This document shows positions 54,711-60,065 of a stretch of DNA of 64,000 nt, one piece after another. The notes beneath the pieces were generated by a model, which worked only from the letters and a program-made list of their open reading frames with translations, had not been told where the DNA came from and did no database searches. Both the position numbers and the translations under genes were made by a program. Position 1 is the stretch's first letter, and each line of letters starts with the position of its first letter. This DNA is from an uncultured delta proteobacterium. GTDB taxonomy: Bacteria; Desulfobacterota; Binatia; UBA9968. Where the stretch lies: assembly GCA_963840855.1 (NCBI GenBank), contig CAWJBB010000065.1, positions 64,001-128,000 of the forward strand, in the 5' to 3' direction.

Positions 54711-57020
54711 TTAGTGTTCTTCGGCTTTCCGTATCGCCGCCCAGAGTTTGGGCGCGGTGTAAGGCATGTCGACGTGGTCGATACCGAGGGGAGCCAGCGC
54801 GTCCATGACGGCGTTGGCCACCGCCGGCGGCGCCCCGTTGCATCCGGCCTCGCCCACGCCCTTGACCCCCAACGGATTAAATGGATTCGGCGTCACCGTC
54901 TCGCCCAGTGTGAGCTGAGGCATGTCGCCGGCGCGCGGCACCGCGTAATTAATCAACGAGCCGGTGAGAACCTCGCCGTCGTCACCAAAGAGCATCTGTT
55001 CGCGCAGCGCTTCACCGAGGCCCTGAGCCACGCCGCCGTGAATCTGCCCATTGAGAATCATCGGGTTGATGACAACGCCGCAGTCATCGACCAGGACGAG
55101 TTTTTCCAGCGTCGGCGTCCCGGTTTCCCGATCGATTCTGACCACCGCCAAATGCGCGCCGAAGCCCCAGGCTTCGCGCTTCGGATCAAAAAAGGCGGTG
55201 TCTTGAAGGCCGGGTTCCACACCGCGCGGAACGTTTCCTCCGTACGCAGCGGCGGCAATCTGGCGCCAGGAAACTTTTTTGTCGGGCACTCCAGCCACCG
55301 CGAAGCCGCCATCCGTCTGAACGATGTCCTCGGCTGCCGCCTCCATCAAATGCGCGGCGATACGGCGCGCCTTTTCCATGACGCGATCAATAGCAACTGC
55401 CAAGGCCCCGCCGCCCATGATGGCGCTGCGGCTGCCAAAGGTGCCGCCGCCCTGCTGGACCACCAGCGTATCGCCGTGTCGAATCGCCACGTGATCCATG
55501 GAAACGCCCATCTTCTCTGCCGTAACCTGGGCAAACACGGTCTCATGCCCTTGCCCATGGGGGCTGGAACCGGTGAGCACCGTAATGTCTCCGCTGCGCT
55601 CCACCCGAACCGTGGCGCTCTCAAAGCCGGCGCCGCCACTCGGCTCGGCAAAAGTCGAGAGGCCCACGCCGACCAACTCGCCGCGTTTGCGCGCGTCGTC
55701 TCGGTAGCGAATAAGTTTTTCGTAGTCGGACAACCGCAGCGCCTCGGCGAGCGACTTTTCATAGTCACCCGAGTCGTATTCGACGTTTACGCCCGTGCGG
55801 TACGGGAACTGCTCGGGGCGAATAAAATTCTTGCGCCGGATTTCCAGACAGTCCATGCCCAACTCGCGCGCCGCTTTGTCGATCAACCGCTCGATATTCA
55901 GCACCGACTCCGGCCTCCCCGCGCCGCGATATGGACCGGTGGGGACGGTATTGGTAAAGACCGCCAACACCTCGACGGAGCAGTTTTGGATCTGGTAGCA
56001 GCCCGGGGCCATCGCCATCATGCGCAGCGGCGGTATCGCGGAAAGGGAGTTCAGGTAAGCGCCCAGATTCCCGATCACGCGCACTTTCAAGCCGAGCATG
56101 GTGCCATCCCGCTTGACGGCCAGCTCGGACGTCATCACCTGGTCGCGCCCTTGATTCGTGGTGACGAAATCCTCGCTGCGCGTGGAGATCCACTTGACGG
56201 GCCGGCCGAGCTTAAGCGCCAGATGACTGGCCAGCGCGTCTTCCTGGTAGAGGAGTCCTTTGCTGCCGAACCCGCCGCCGACATCGGGCGCGATGACGCG
56301 AATCCTGTGCTCAGGAAGTCCGATCGCGGTGGCAAGATCCGTGCGCACGCGGTGCGGGCTCTGAGTTGAGAGCCAAACAGTCAGATCTCCCGTCGGTTCC
56401 GGCTTCGCCACGATGCCTCGCGGCTCCATCGCCAGCGCCACCAATCTCGGGCTGGCGATACGCATCCGAACGATATGCTCGGCCTCGGCGAATGCCTTGT
56501 CGACATCGCCGCCTGATTTCCGTGTGATGTAGCACAGGTTGCTTCCAGCTCCTCGCGGGCGAGCGGCGCGCCGGGCTCCAGCGCCTTTTCGGCATTAACG
56601 ACCGCTGGCAGCGCTTCGTATTCCACAACGATGGCGCTCGCGGCATCCTGGGCGAGGGCGCGGCTTTCGGCAACCACCGCCGCCACGGGAGTGCCGGCCG
56701 CGTGGACGGCCCCGCGCGCCAGCAGCGGATGGGGCGGTATCTTCATGCCGGACACCATCGGGATAGCCGGGACATGCAACTGTTCGCTGAGGTCATCGCC
56801 GATCACCACGGCGATCACTCCGGACATCGCCTTCGCTGCGCTCGTATCGATGGAAATTATTTTCGCATGCGGGTAGGGGCTACGCTGAAGCGCCATGTGG
56901 AGCATTCCTGGTAGCTGGATGTCCTCGGTATAAGCATCCTATGCCGGTAATCAGGGGCCCGTCTTCGACGCGGCGTATCGACGCGCCGATAAGTCCAGTC
57001 GTGGTGTGCTCTGTTGTCAT
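54711..57020 (-). CDS. xanthine-dehydrogenase-family molybdopterin-binding large subunit (CoxL form-II-like), two 1-nt frameshifts
   Basis: RSPYPHAKI, GGGFGSK, PYRGAGRPE, HGQGHET, GQIHGG, KGVGE; shifts near 56933 and 56543. Confidence 0.88.
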
Positions 57021-57154
57021 GATGAAGCCTCGTGTTCAAAAAAATGCTTGTGGCTCGTGTTCGCATTCGTGACCAATGTTCGTAAACTAGCACGATCACG
57101 AATCACGAGCACGACTGTTCCCTTTCGCCTTACGCCGGGAGCCTTATATTAGGT

Positions 57155-57360
57155 CTGTTGCAGATTATCATATTGGAGATCATGTTTATGTGACACCGAT
57201 TTCAAGAGCTTGCTGGAATGAGGACCATCGGCGCCTAATCCCTCTCACGAGGATCAAGGACAGACTGTCCCGTCCAGTAAGAGAACGGATCTGAGGTTCA
57301 ATAGAAAGTTGTCCCTTTGTTGAGGACTTATATAAGGCGAACTTTCCGTTCAAAGCTATT
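57155..57360 (+). ncRNA. IS110 bridge RNA (target-binding and donor-binding loops); ends approximate
   Basis: Two stem-closed internal loops whose guide segments match the target and donor junction sequences. Confidence 0.85.
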
Positions 57361-57395
57361 GGAATTGGAAGAACACAACCAAGGAGGAAGAGAGA

Positions 57396-58622
57396 GTGAA
57401 GCGATACTATGTGGGAGTGGATTGGGCTGATGAATTTCACCAGGTATGGGTCAGCGATGCCGAGGGCAAGAAAGTAGCTGAGATGAAGGTTGAGCAGAGT
57501 CCCAAGGGCATGGGCGAGTTTGGCCGTTGGCTCCATGAACGTCAGGCAGAACAGATAGAGCTTTGGGCGGCCATCGAGAAGCCCCAGGGGCGGATTGTGG
57601 ATTTTCTGTTGGACCACGGGGTAGTGGTCTATCCGGTTAATCCCAAGGCCCTGGACCGGGTCAGGGACCGGTTTCGCATGAGCCAATCCAAGAGCGACTC
57701 CTTTGATGCTTATGTATTGGCGGACTTTGTCAGGACCGATCACGCTCATTTGCGAGCTCTTGAGCCTAACTCTGCTCAGGCCCAAGAGTTTAAGATGCTC
57801 ACCCGGGATCACCACCGATTGGGGCGCCATAAGACTCGGCTCATCAATCAGATCGTGGTAACGCTCAAAGAGTATTACCCTCGCCCCCTGGAGGTTTTCT
57901 CTGATCTGGAATCGAAGATCGCGTTGGATTTTCTCACCCAGTATCCGACTCCGCGGGCACTGTCTGATCTTACCCGTAGAAAATGGAACCGCTTTGCCAA
58001 GCGCGAGCACCATCTCGGTGAGGCGCGCTGTAAAGAGCTGTGGGAGAAGCTGAACCAGCCGCAGTTGGGAATTCCAGAACACGTGGTCAGAGCCAAGGCG
58101 CAATTGCTTTTGGTGCTCGTCGCTCAGCTTAAGGCCTTGGCTCAGGCGGTCGAGAGCTATAGCGAGGAGATCCAACGTTTTTTCGCCTCTATGCCGGCGG
58201 CTAAGCTTGCGCAGACACTGCCGGGAGGAAAAAGTGGGACCATCGTACCGATGCTTTGGGCCGAGCTGGGCGATGTCAAGAGCCGATGGAAATCCTTTAG
58301 GCACCTTCAAGCCGAAGCGGGAGGGGTCCCGGTAACCCAATCCAGCGGCAAGAGCCATGTCGTACTGTTTCGTTATGCCTGTAACAAGCTGATGCGATAC
58401 GCCTCGTACTGGTTGTCGTTTAACTCGCTCAATCGCTGTGAGTGGGCGAACAAATACTATCGCGACCAACGGGCGAAAGGACATCATCATCCCCAAGCGC
58501 TTAGGGCTTTGGCAGCGAAGTGGTTGAAAATTATTTTCATCATGTGGAGAGACGATAAGCCGTACGATGAGAACTATCACTTGGCGAACATCGCCCGTCA
58601 GACGATACGCCAGGCGGCATGA
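57396..58622 (+). CDS. IS110-family DEDD transposase/recombinase
   Basis: VGVD, AIEKP, KSDSFDA (DEDD RuvC) and Tnp20 QSSGKS serine; GTG start with AGGAGG RBS. Confidence 0.95.
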   Translation: MKRYYVGVDWADEFHQVWVSDAEGKKVAEMKVEQSPKGMGEFGRWLHERQAEQIELWAAIEKPQGRIVDFLLDHGVVVYPVNPKALDRVRDRFRMSQSKSDSFDAYVLADFVRTDHAHLRALEPNSAQAQEFKMLTRDHHRLGRHKTRLINQIVVTLKEYYPRPLEVFSDLESKIALDFLTQYPTPRALSDLTRRKWNRFAKREHHLGEARCKELWEKLNQPQLGIPEHVVRAKAQLLLVLVAQLKALAQAVESYSEEIQRFFASMPAAKLAQTLPGGKSGTIVPMLWAELGDVKSRWKSFRHLQAEAGGVPVTQSSGKSHVVLFRYACNKLMRYASYWLSFNSLNRCEWANKYYRDQRAKGHHHPQALRALAAKWLKIIFIMWRDDKPYDENYHLANIARQTIRQAA

Positions 58623-58693
58623 AAAAAAATAAACAGGGGACTTGACAAGTCTCATAGAATGTCTGTCCTGAGCAAAGTCGAAGGAGCTCACGC

Positions 58694-59683
58694 CTATTTG
58701 ATCACCTTGTCCGCCCGGTACAGCACAGACTGTGGAATCGTCACGCCGATTTGCTTCGCGGTTTTCAGATTGATGACGAACTCAAACTTGGTTGGCTGTT
58801 CCACGGGTAAATCTGCGGGCTTAGTGCCTTTGAGAATCTTGTCCACGAAAACAGCCGCCCGCCGCCACCGCTCTCCATCGTCAACGCCGTATGAAATCAG
58901 TCCGCCTTCCTCGGCCCAGAGGGCCAGCCCGCACATCGTGGGCAAACGATTCTTGCTGGCAATCTCCAGAAGCGTTTTTCGGTGTCGCAAGGTAACGCTG
59001 CCATGAAAAATGATCAGCCCATCGGCGCGCTCCTTGGTCATTGCGGCGTAGGCGTTCGCAAATTGGCTCGGCTCCTTTACCTGCAAGGATTGAATCTTTA
59101 TTCCTAAAGAGCGCCCCGCTCGGTCTGTTTCTTTCACTTCATCCAGATCGGATCTTGCACCGCCGTGGAGAACGGCTGCTCGCGAGATCTTAGGAAATGT
59201 TTCCTTTAAGAGTTCGAGCCGCTTTGCAGTCATACCCATATCGATGTTCGTGGTTCCGGTCACATTGCCACCGGGACGGGCAAGACTAGCCACCAAACCC
59301 GAAGCCACCAGATCGGTGCCGCTGCCAGCGACAATGGGGATCTTGTTAGTGACTTTCGTGGCTGCCGAAATTGCCGGTCCTCCTGCGACAATAATTTCAA
59401 CTCCAAGTCCGACCAATTCTGTAGCCAAACCTTGCAACCGTTCCCGTTTGCCCTCGGCGTAGCGAGTTTCGACGATAAGGTTCTGACCCTCGACATAACC
59501 CAACTCCCGCAAACGCTGGCGAAAGGCCTCTTGGTAAGGCGTGCCGGTATTCATTAAGAATCCAATCCGGCGGACCTTAGTCGCCTGCTGGGCCTGGGCT
59601 AGTTGGCGGTCGGTCAAAGTAAAGAAAGCAAGTGCGACTAGAAGAAATTTGAAAGTTCCGAATGTGGACCTGTGAGTCGGCAT
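58694..59683 (-). CDS. ABC transporter substrate-binding protein (ABC_sub_bind type)
   Basis: LRELGYVEGQN, LARPGGNVTG, KRLELLKE, PADLPVEQPTKFE.VINLKTA. Confidence 0.92.
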   Translation of the reverse strand: MPTHRSTFGTFKFLLVALAFFTLTDRQLAQAQQATKVRRIGFLMNTGTPYQEAFRQRLRELGYVEGQNLIVETRYAEGKRERLQGLATELVGLGVEIIVAGGPAISAATKVTNKIPIVAGSGTDLVASGLVASLARPGGNVTGTTNIDMGMTAKRLELLKETFPKISRAAVLHGGARSDLDEVKETDRAGRSLGIKIQSLQVKEPSQFANAYAAMTKERADGLIIFHGSVTLRHRKTLLEIASKNRLPTMCGLALWAEEGGLISYGVDDGERWRRAAVFVDKILKGTKPADLPVEQPTKFEFVINLKTAKQIGVTIPQSVLYRADKVIK

Positions 59684-60065
59684 TTGTCCTCCTCTCAAGA
59701 AGAGATAAGCGCGATAGAAGGCCCGACCGAAAACCGCCACGTTAAGCGATTAAACTGTCATTCGGCTTCGTTGCCGAACCAAAATGGGTTAGCAAACGGG
59801 AAAGCGTTCTGCTTATCTCACCGCCCGCCTTTCTCTGTCAAGCCTTACTTAAGAACCGTAGGGCAATCGTTATGCCAAGACCAGCAAAGACGGGGATTTG
59901 AGAAAGTACTTGTAATAACGGAAGAATTTTGCGGACCAGAGTCGACGTTACTGATGAAAGATCCGGCGGGGTGTAGTTAATTTGATATACCCCTGTAGCA
60001 AATTTGATCCACCGGACTTCGCAGTTTGAGTGCATCGCCCGGACGCAACGCAGCGAAATCCCGGA

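Follow-up and report, generated by a model that had tools for sequence, protein, structure and literature searches.

An IS110-group insertion sequence with a predicted bridge RNA in its left end in the genome of an uncultured Binatia bacterium

In this study, we examined a stretch of 64,000 nucleotides from an uncultured delta proteobacterium (Binatia, UBA9968; contig CAWJBB010000065.1, positions 64,001 to 128,000), here named the window, and found that positions 57145 to 58664 very probably (roughly 0.9) represent an IS110-group element with a bridge RNA in its left end and a DEDD/Ser recombinase using that RNA. The original prediction had proposed such an RNA with one loop for target and one for donor DNA, and all of its coordinates and strings are present in the sequence. 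The features of the locus are the following.

57138 to 57144, + strand: left target GGAGC with core CT (57143-44), the last DNA before the element that is common with the empty-site paralogue on contig C32
57145 to 58664, + strand: IS110-group insertion sequence of 1520 bp, with a left end of 251 nt and a right end of 42 nt
57145 to 57150, + strand: TATATT, right donor arm and putative -10 half of the circle-junction promoter
57157 to 57372, + strand: predicted bridge RNA, with its start (57156-58) placed from the -10 position of the junction promoter
57209 to 57281, + strand: predicted target-binding stem-loop (RNAfold), with outer stems 57209-17/57273-81, 57219-20/57271-72 and 57222-25/57267-70 and inner hairpin 57238-41/57251-54
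57227 to 57236, + strand: putative left target guide ATCGGCGCCT, of the same sense as the left-target top strand, a variable block in a conserved scaffold
57257 to 57263, + strand: putative right target guide AGGACAG, the exact (7/7) reverse complement of CTGTCCT (58663-69; core CT plus GTCCT)
57264 to 57265, + strand: AC at the handshake-guide position of the target loop, complementary to donor GT (58661-62) adjoining the core
57283 to 57351, + strand: predicted donor-binding stem-loop, with stems 57283-89/57345-51 and 57295-99/57339-43 and inner hairpin 57311-14/57324-27
57301 to 57310, + strand: putative left donor guide ATAGAAAGTT, matching the right-end terminus ATAGAATGTC (58654-63) at 8/10 positions
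57330 to 57338, + strand: putative right donor guide ATATAAG (57330-36), the exact reverse complement of CTTATAT (57143-49), followed by GC at the handshake position of the donor loop
57396 to 58622, + strand: recombinase gene (408 aa, GTG start), with the Shine-Dalgarno sequence AAGGAGG at 57381-87
58642 to 58647, + strand: TTGACA in the right end, putative -35 half of the junction promoter
58654 to 58664, + strand: left donor arm ATAGAATGT with core CT, the right-end terminus
58665 to 58669, + strand: right target GTCCT, with which the dispersed repeat GCCTGYCCTGAG...TCGAAGG begins

The edges of the element are well defined by its copies. The genome carries three copies at ~98% identity, including the one in the window, and two relatives at 78%; every one ends CT...CT, with the same end bases in the two other 98% copies and the two 78% relatives as in the window copy, where the CT core lies at 57143-44 on the left and at 58663-64 on the right. 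Similarity between the window copy and the two 98% copies stops exactly outside CT...CT, and the three copies, located at three different sites, have diverged completely 4 to 9 nt beyond the core. Furthermore, the two flanks of the window copy, when joined, correspond to an uninterrupted sequence on contig C32, i.e., a scarless paralogous empty site. The left noncoding end is far longer than the right one (251 versus 42 nt), and the 25 longest inverted pairs (of 45) include no terminal inverted repeat. An Rfam search with five copies of the target repeat gave nothing beyond a chance match below the threshold (RF01843, 20.9 bits versus 50).

The recombinase carries an N-terminal RuvC-like DEDD domain (Pfam PF01548, E 8.2e-32, residues 6-162) and a C-terminal Tnp domain (PF02371, E 4e-5, 24.4 bits versus a cutoff of 21.3), and it matches the NCBIfam model NF033542, "IS110 family RNA-guided transposase", with 154.3 bits (cutoff 140). 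Residues D9, E61, D101, D104, S317 and G318 are invariant among nine sequences with identities down to 29%, and the open reading frame (ORF) is of full length with all catalytic residues present, as had been predicted for a 408-aa protein with intact DEDD and Ser motifs. D9, D101 and D104 align to D11, D102 and D105 of IS621 and S317-G318 to its S241-G242; E61 was placed by motif, with HMMER setting E60 of IS621 one residue off. IS621 (8wt6, E 8e-9) and ISCro4 (9t56, E 4.9e-8) were the only relatives found in the PDB.

In the RNAfold structure of positions 57205 to 57355 (151 nt), the two stem-loops form and their internal loops stay open (-49.8 kcal/mol, z = -2.75), and 2 of 200 shuffles folded equally well; the whole left end of 251 nt folded no better than its shuffles (z = -1.06). 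In the target loop, TTGCTGGA at 57210-17 pairs with TCCAGTAA at 57273-80, including one G.U pair, and GGAC at 57222-25 pairs with GTCC at 57267-70. The donor loop is closed by GAACGGA (57283-89) with TCCGTTC (57345-51) and by GGTTC with GAACT. The fold is conserved among 16 relatives, for which RNAalifold predicted 34 pairs almost identical to the 35 specified from the two-loop structure. In the same alignment, 96.1% of 558 cells were paired, compared with 26 to 50% when the partners were slid. In the target stem-loop, pairing reached 97% in both helix 1 and the inner hairpin, and alignment columns 16-72 and 39-51 show compensatory changes. The donor helices were paired to 96%, 89% and 100%, and in relative L010 one C-G pair of the inner hairpin is replaced by U-A, a double change. 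The stems show many G.U alternations, which fit the + strand only. Each stem-loop has a large internal loop, and the first loop is variable and the second conserved.

A covariance model built on this structure found exactly the five elements of the genome itself and hits in 22/90 genomes of the family, or 20/88 without two unpublished genomes. The tallies 20/401 and 22/90 include the unpublished genome G351, and 22/90 also includes G341; the element of G351 (L018) was left out of the alignment and of the pair, guide-flank and promoter counts, and none of the conclusions depends on these two genomes. For a 5' stem-loop ahead of the target loop, RNAalifold predicted 0 pairs in a poor alignment of 16 5' parts, in which single sequences can form hairpins. 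A scan of positions 56900 to 58900 against Rfam 15 (E up to 1) gave no family, so membership of the RNA in this class is based on its architecture and not on a curated model.

A guide function was judged by the agreement between loop and flank, for which the comparison of relatives is the decisive test. An exact 7-mer would be expected by chance about 0.015 times in the 251-nt end (245/4^7), and two are present, i.e., the right target guide and the right donor guide. The left target guide agrees with its flank at 6/7 positions (GGCGCCT versus GGAGCCT, left target plus core), the true mismatch being C versus A at 57232/57140. From the sense of these segments, the left guide would pair with the bottom strand and the right guide with the top strand.

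Across relatives, the target-loop guides change together with the DNA flanking each insertion, as the original prediction had said they should. For the right guide, 91 of 95 cells at RT1-5 match in 19 distinct elements, a total that 0 of 100,000 permutations reached; 15/19 elements match at 5/5 positions and 4/19 at 4/5, and two of these four misses are G.T wobbles. By position, the core and RT1-5 match in 17 to 19 of the 19 elements and RT6-8 in 3 to 5 of them. This sharp end of the match after RT5 sets the right guide at 7 nt, the length that had been proposed from the window copy. Eleven distinct right-guide 5-mers were found, each beside a matching flank. The left guide likewise tracks the left flank (165/208 cells in 26 distinct elements), and none of 20,000 permutations reached this total. 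Elements found later by the RNA model showed the same behavior of guide and flank.

For these counts, pairs identical in guide and flank were collapsed (right, 25 to 19; left, 29 to 26). L073, whose anchor is off by two bases and which is a near-duplicate of L065, was excluded, and no anchors were found for L068; L024, L026, L027, L060, L065, L067 and L074 lack one end and were counted on the present side only. An earlier, smaller set that included L018 gave 65/70 for the right and 109/144 for the left side. In many relatives the register of the left guide is shifted by 1 or 2 nt and scoring in a fixed register failed there; it was scored at its best register, in own and permuted pairs alike. 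L021, with a loop one base shorter, is under-scored on the left.

Agreement is also visible between close copies. A single A-to-G change in the guide at 57260 covaries with a T/C difference at 58666 between copies of the same genome, and the window copy and L002 show 24 differences, 2 of them within the 13 guide positions outside the core (P = 0.017); one of these 2 differences matches the T/C difference of the targets. Judged from the relatives alone, the right guide is exactly 7 nt and the left guide about 8 to 10 nt long with distal tolerance. In the window copy, the core would be paired by the left target, right target and right donor guides. The left target guide has CT opposite the core in 11 of 26 relatives; the other 15 have CA, GA, CC, CG, AA, TA or no scorable register. 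The dinucleotide AC at 57264-65 would act as a handshake guide, a role taken over from IS621; its A (column 63) is invariant, and its C (column 64) is found in 15 of 16 relatives, with T in L025.

The target matching the left guide perfectly, GGCGC-CT-GTCCT, which had been predicted as preferred, has 0 sites in the 7.1-Mb assembly. The mismatch tolerance predicted along with it is likely for the left guide, with natural sites one or two left-side positions off the guide as in IS621.

In the donor loop, the left guide departs from the right-end terminus at two positions: a true mismatch (A.A; A versus T at 57307/58660) and a position at which a U.G wobble would form with the bottom strand. Relatives with ATAGAAAGTCT match fully up to the core, and the match is 9/9 in most relatives. 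In L010, a T occurs in both the left donor guide and the right end, which is a compensatory A-to-T change. Opposite CT, the left donor guide carries T followed by G, and this T could form a wobble. The block of the right donor guide is invariant in the relatives, and GC at 57337-38 is complementary to GC at 57141-42; a repeat search returned this region as 57141-52 versus 57327-38 (12 nt, 92% complementary). Around the donor, the sub-terminal ATA...TAT pattern is consistent with the short STIR reported for IS110 (PMC11208160). Donor guides and handshake dinucleotides are nearly constant, with one donor-guide change (L010) and one handshake-column change (L025), and the proposed pairing of these segments is based on complementarity and a single compensatory event.

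Joining the right end (RE) to the left end (LE) yields TTGACA-17-TATATT, which has 11 of 12 consensus letters and would form a promoter at the circle junction. The same motifs with a 17-nt spacer occur at the junction in 15 of 16 relatives, in line with the promoter that had been predicted there from sequence. On the + strand of the integrated copy, no promoter-like site was found upstream of the RNA. A 216-nt RNA-library contig (X16, record 17) coincides exactly with positions 57157-57372 and is a weak hint of expression, at a depth of 3.4 and with possible DNA carry-over. No RE-LE circle-junction contig was present among the assembled contigs of four public runs (three RNA libraries and one DNA library), which says little since contigs drop rare forms. 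The single joint in the run contigs connects 57427 to 57554 (one contig, side 26) and allows no interpretation, and regions that no contig covers carry no evidential weight.

By analogy with IS621, excision would circularize the element by joining its right end to its left end, and the junction would assemble TTGACA-17-TATATT and drive transcription from ~57157. The left end (251 nt) would encode a bridge RNA of ~200 nt, and recombinase dimers would bind each of its loops. The target loop would pair with sites that resemble GGAGC-CT-GTCCT and lie where the dispersed repeat has its 5' edge, and the donor loop with ATAGAATGT-CT-TATAT at the circle junction. Ser317 would then cut after the CT core and strands would be exchanged, upon which AC (57264-65) and GC (57337-38) would pair with the partner duplex.

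Of the other explanations considered, one accepts an element of the bridge type and holds that the window copy is crippled or a fossil, its guides merely recording a past insertion. This is unlikely but deserves some weight: each left guide of the window copy has one true mismatch, a perfectly matched target is missing from the genome, the near-identical copy L003 already carries a 1-nt deletion splitting its ORF, and no circle-junction contig was seen in the contigs of the four runs. The two left-guide mismatches suggest that the window copy may be less active than a perfectly matched element. Nevertheless, its ORF is of full length and complete in catalytic residues, and IS621 too inserts mostly at natural sites one left-guide mismatch away, as reported in PMC11208160. 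The donor mismatch, moreover, is common to all three copies at three different sites, so that the lineage either moved after acquiring the mismatch or tolerates it.

Two further explanations would deny the RNA its guide role. The left end could be a DNA-level binding site of the recombinase or a 5' leader controlling transposase expression, with flank matches due to chance or to a target preference set by the protein. Its scaffold is indeed very conserved at the DNA level, the region immediately precedes the ORF with its Shine-Dalgarno sequence, and the bridge RNA transcript is a prediction. We consider this reading highly improbable, as the variable blocks coincide exactly with the two loop segments and change with the flanks in elements whose proteins are >66% identical, while G.U alternations and compensatory pairs indicate a single-stranded fold of the + strand. 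A preference set by the protein would not explain the A-to-G guide and T-to-C target change between copies of 98% identity either. Alternatively, the flanks could belong to a longer mobile unit, and guide and flank would agree through co-inheritance and not through targeting. Some relatives do share identical 14-nt flanks (L022/L062/L072 and L010/L055); however, identical pairs of guide and flank were collapsed before counting, the three copies of the genome diverge fully 4 to 9 nt beyond the core, the uninterrupted empty site exists on C32, and the agreement ends sharply at RT5. This leaves co-inheritance with hardly any credibility. An IS110-group element whose recombinase uses a left-end bridge RNA is the preferred reading.

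The element is a well-documented natural orthologue of the bridge recombinases from an uncultured soil/groundwater lineage, with a protein sequence far from that of IS621. Its relatives form a natural series of reprogrammed guides, with 11 right-guide variants that each adjoin matching DNA. The designation as a new programmable orthologue needs to be narrowed: the element is an additional IS110 orthologue of a kind in print since 2024, and its recombinase would be programmable as judged from the natural variation of guides. It could be of use in mining bridge recombinases with longer target specification and in annotating elements and their repeat targets in metagenome-assembled genomes, and it leaves the understanding of the mechanism unchanged. 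We tentatively raise the possibility, which we regard as doubtful, that the elements of this clade (Binatia type) are a distinct bridge-RNA design, with no conserved 5' stem-loop, a fixed 7-nt right guide, fully complementary handshakes, and left guides in varied registers that are often unpaired with the core. If so, target choice would depend on ~8 positions on the left and 5 on the right, together with the base preceding the core, which is read by the donor loop. The clade would then provide a natural target specification of greater length and serve as a natural test of the dispensability of core pairing by the left guide.

Bridge RNA systems have been described in publications since 2024, and thousands of orthologues have been predicted, some with a right guide longer than that of IS621 (PMC11208160). 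Among known systems, IS621 from Escherichia coli with its bridge RNA is close to the present element (Durrant et al. 2024, PMC11208160; Hiraizumi et al. 2024, PMC11208158). As far as these accounts describe IS621, the present element resembles it in the DEDD RuvC-like domain and the Tnp domain with catalytic Ser-Gly, the CT core, the long left and short right end, and a sigma-70 promoter rebuilt over the RE-LE junction, here read from sequence. In the RNA, likewise, the target loop is variable and the donor loop conserved, with left guides in top-strand sense and right guides as reverse complements, and the ATA...TAT pattern around the donor and dinucleotides at the handshake positions are shared as well. 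Both elements insert into dispersed repeats, with natural sites one to two left-guide mismatches off the encoded optimum. In contrast to IS621, the protein is distant (phmmer E 8e-9) and longer (408 versus 326 aa), the additional residues lying between its RuvC and Tnp parts, and the host is an uncultured soil/groundwater lineage and not E. coli. The right target guide is 7 nt long here versus 4 nt in the IS621 described, both handshake dinucleotides are, on paper, fully complementary to their partners, and the conserved 5' stem-loop of the IS621 consensus is not predicted from our poor alignment of this part.

Other members of the family differ in further respects. The bridge recombinases ISCro4/IS622 (PDB 9t56; 10.1101/2025.05.14.653916) belong to the same family at low identity and, according to that report, were engineered and tested in human cells, whereas the present element is known from its sequence. 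ISPpu9 and ISPpu10 of Pseudomonas putida are, by the accounts in PMC12288879 and 10.64898/2026.03.19.712850, likewise IS110-family elements in several copies, all located in repeats. These are repetitive extragenic palindromic or conserved intergenic sequences, so that host and repeat differ from those found here, and hairpin structure in the target has been proposed to matter for ISPpu10. The seekRNA of IS1111/IS110 elements (Siddiquee et al. 2024, PMC11187229) follows the same principle as the RNA proposed here, in that an RNA from a noncoding end selects the target. In the IS1111 group as described there, this RNA lies in the right end, and the sub-terminal inverted repeats are longer; in the present element, the RNA lies in the left end, and no such repeats occur among 25 of 45 inverted pairs.

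The left end of the IS110-group insertion sequence in the window very probably (about 0.9 by our estimate, made from sequence) encodes a bridge RNA. All strings and coordinates of the original prediction were found in the sequence. Within the 7.1-Mb assembly that contains the window (G000), a DNA search revealed two more copies with ~98% identity, L002 (contig C35) and L003 (C81), and two relatives with 78% identity, L004 (C18) and L005 (C61). In the three close copies, similarity stops at the common bases ...CT/TATATTAGG on the left and ...ATAGAATGTCT/G on the right, and L004 and L005 have the same ends. The window flanks joined by a single CT read CGCCGGGAGCCTGTCCTGAGCAAAGTCGAAGGA, which is present uninterrupted on contig C32. 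The copy edges and this uninterrupted sequence therefore define the element, which has the following features and neighbors:

54711-56465, - strand: ORF with two molybdopterin-binding domains
56381-56905, - strand: ORF with an a/b hammerhead domain
57143-57144 and 58663-58664: CT core on each side
57145-58664: element, 1520 bp, from the copy edges and the empty site on C32; non-coding ends of 251 nt (left) and 42 nt (right)
57396-58622: recombinase ORF, 408 aa, GTG start, AAGGAGG nine bases upstream
58642-58647: TTGACA in the right end, then 17 nt to the core
58694-59740, - strand: ABC-transporter substrate-binding protein gene (PF04392), right of the element

No terminal inverted repeat was found among the inverted pairs listed. 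The two - strand ORFs are overlapping parts of a split aldehyde oxidase/xanthine dehydrogenase-type gene (54711-56905), a split that suggests a frameshift or misassembly around 56381-56465. Furthermore, the 3' end of the PF04392 gene and the repeat downstream of it recur at three sites on C32, spaced ~5 kb apart, including the uninterrupted target site.

The recombinase matched DEDD_Tnp_IS110 (8e-32) and Transposase_20 (4e-5) in Pfam and, with 154.3 bits (cutoff, 140), the NCBIfam model NF033542, "IS110 family RNA-guided transposase." Its only two relatives of solved structure were the transposases of IS621 (8wt6, E 8e-9), the Escherichia coli bridge-RNA element, and of ISCro4 (9t56, E 4.9e-8). 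In the alignment to IS621, D9/D101/D104 fall on D11/D102/D105 and S317-G318 on S241-G242 (IS621 numbering from Hiraizumi et al. 2024, PMC11208158). Since HMMER places IS621 E60 one position off, E61 was assigned by the conserved AIE motif. The DEDD and serine residues predicted to be intact are indeed so, as D9, E61, D101, D104, S317, and G318 are invariant in nine sequences with identities down to 29%. Compared with IS621, the protein is ~80 residues longer, with the extra length between the two domains. The ORF is intact in the window copy and L002. In L003, a 1-nt deletion at about element position 791 splits the ORF, while the bridge RNA does not differ from the one in L002; this copy may be mobile only with the help of another copy.

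We then considered the RNA structure. Using RNAfold, 57205-57355 formed two stem-loops, both containing a large internal loop together with a small inner hairpin (-49.8 kcal/mol, z = -2.75; 2 of 200 shuffles folded as well). Relatives were collected by a protein-pattern scan of one-genome-per-species contigs (7 loci), by a protein search of 401 class genomes with E up to 1e-40 (20; 19 of 400 without one unpublished genome), and later by a covariance model. When 16 distinct RNA regions were aligned, the scaffold proved highly conserved; the first loop held two variable blocks, and the second was almost invariant, as in the IS110 noncoding RNAs of Durrant et al. (2024, PMC11208160). Unguided RNAalifold predicted 34 pairs, nearly identical to the 35 specified by hand. 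The specified structure was paired in 96.1% of 558 cells, versus 26 to 50% when partners were shifted by 1 to 3 columns. Changes on both sides occurred in three pairs, and several pairs showed Watson-Crick/G.U alternation (e.g., UA 9/UG 7, GC 8/GU 8, and CG 7/UG 7), which fits a + strand RNA. In the own genome, the covariance model built from this alignment found the five elements and nothing more; it also matched 22 of 90 same-family genomes at E up to 1e-8 (20 of 88 without the unpublished G351 and G341). Conservation is poor over the ~60 nt from the left terminus to the first loop, for which no consensus structure was predicted.

In the target loop, the right guide AGGACAG and CT+GTCCT are exact reverse complements, and the left guide GGCGCCT matches GGAGCCT in 6 of 7 positions. 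L002 and L003 carry AGGGCAG beside CT+GCCCT; therefore, guide A/G at 57260 goes with target T/C. Between the window copy and L002, 2 of 24 differences in 1520 bases hit guide positions outside the core, of which there are 13 (hypergeometric P = 0.017). L004 and L005, a second lineage of the element type in the same genome, have guides of their own (left GAGGCCT, right GGGGCAG), each site being one position off the guides.

The original prediction held that guides should covary with flanks, and across relatives they did on both sides of the core. For these counts, the unpublished genome was left out and pairs with identical guide and flank were collapsed. Among 19 distinct elements with 11 different right-guide 5-mers, the five positions outward from the core (RT1-5) matched 5/5 in 15 elements and 4/5 in 4 (91/95 cells); two of the four misses are possible G.T wobbles, and none of 100,000 guide-flank permutations reached this score. 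Per position, core and RT1-5 matched in 17 to 19 elements and RT6-8 in 3 to 5, as expected by chance; counting the core, the right guide thus has 7 nt, as proposed. The left guide matched in 165 of 208 cells (8-nt window adjoining the core, 26 distinct elements), a score reached by 0 of 20,000 permutations with the best register taken for true and permuted pairs alike. Core-adjoining positions matched most, in 23 and 26 of 26. Agreement extended to elements that only the RNA model added at a later stage, for example with left 8/8 in L052, L058, L065, and L071 and right 5/5 in L056, L058, and L071. The left-guide register shifts by one or two bases against the scaffold between sub-groups. Opposite the core, 11 of 26 left guides have CT; the other 15 have CA, GA, CC, CG, AA, or TA, or an unscorable register (e.g., GA in L011, L022, and L071; CA in L026 and L058; CG in L037). 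In this clade, the left guide may not need to pair with the core.

In the donor loop, CT+TATAT at the left terminus has its reverse complement in the right guide, ATATAAG, and a repeat search found 57141-57152 and 57327-57338 to be 92% complementary over 12 nt. The left guide ATAGAAAGTT would pair with the right terminus ATAGAATGTC with one A.A mismatch and one possible U.G wobble with the bottom strand. Most relatives carry ATAGAAAGTCT, with a full match up to the core, and L010 has T both in the left donor guide and in the right end, a compensatory change. That the window copy, with its left-guide mismatches, is inactive appears unlikely; the donor mismatch is common to all three window-lineage copies, at different sites. 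This lineage has the right-end letter T (58660) of L010 and the donor-guide letter A (57307) of L009, a mix that could stem from plain mutation or from two lineages having exchanged ends.

Both loops hold a dinucleotide immediately 3' of the AG that pairs with the core: the target-loop AC is complementary to the donor GT ahead of the core, and the donor-loop GC to the target GC ahead of the core. Such positions were named handshake guides by Hiraizumi et al. (PMC11208158). Of 26 targets, 24 have C as the base ahead of the core, which fits the fixed G in the donor loop. Since these positions hardly vary, the putative handshake assignment draws only on complementarity.

The window copy abuts a short dispersed repeat, GCCTGYCCTGAG...TCGAAGGR (58665-58700), at the repeat's 5' edge. 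The 12-mer GCCTGYCCTGAG occurs at 34 sites of the assembly (e.g., on C32, C75, C87, and C41), with an estimated ~2 expected by chance, and CCTGAG-N3-14-TCGAAGG at 152. The guide-perfect 12-mer was found at 0 sites and the actual target 12-mer once uninterrupted. With 37 sites for GCCTGTCCT and 69 for GCCTGCCCT, the targets of the A/G guide variants are thus two sub-variants of one repeat. In the 20 repeat copies with TCGAAGG, the Y after G can pair with the base after AGG in 19 (C-G 9, T-A 6, T-G 4, C-A 1), which suggests that the repeat may form a hairpin, possibly at the RNA level. No match to this repeat was found in Rfam. IS621 likewise resides mostly in REP elements, with a natural site one mismatch from its left guide (PMC11208160). 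A second sub-group (L011, L020, L023, L037, L038, L013, L027, and L058) adjoins another palindromic repeat type, with flanks ...CCTTCATCCT/CCCCCGCG...GGGGGAGG or ...CCCT/CTCCCGCAAGCGGGAGAGGG; thus, REP-like repeats are targeted by both sub-groups. Also, L022 (genome G359) and L062 and L072 (G426, two of three RNA-model matches examined) have identical 14-nt left and 11-nt right flanks, and their target is probably inside a longer repeated unit.

The left end begins with TATATT, and the arrangement TTGACA-17 nt-TATATT is kept in 15 of 16 relatives. Joined in the circle, the two boxes would form a junction promoter as described for IS110 elements (PMC11208160), with a predicted start near 57156-57158. 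No + strand promoter-like site was found upstream in the integrated copy. Assembled contigs of 20 runs contained the stretch or part of it, and those of four runs were compared with the window. A 216-nt contig from a sediment metatranscriptome (X16, record 17) lies wholly on 57157-57372 and shows four differences, of which the three listed (57231, 57232, and 57260) are all in the target guides. Other RNA-library contigs partly cover the ORF, and no joint of right and left end was seen in the contigs of the four runs. As such contigs neither show RNA ends nor exclude DNA carry-over, the X16 contig is a weak hint of expression. It combines an L010-type left guide with an L002-type right guide in an otherwise near-identical scaffold and is a further natural guide combination.

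Of the sequence-readable features that define IS110-group bridge-recombinase elements, nearly all are present. The exceptions are a curated RNA model, as none matched, and possibly a 5' stem-loop, for which the poor alignment of the 5' parts gave 0 consensus pairs, and single sequences can form hairpins. Publications on the bridge-RNA system date from 2024 onward; they demonstrated covariation across thousands of orthologues and noted that some have a right guide longer than that of IS621 (PMC11208160). Work in the field has since turned to excision-complex structures and engineering. Judged by its sequence, the element is a well-supported new example of this already described bridge-recombinase kind.
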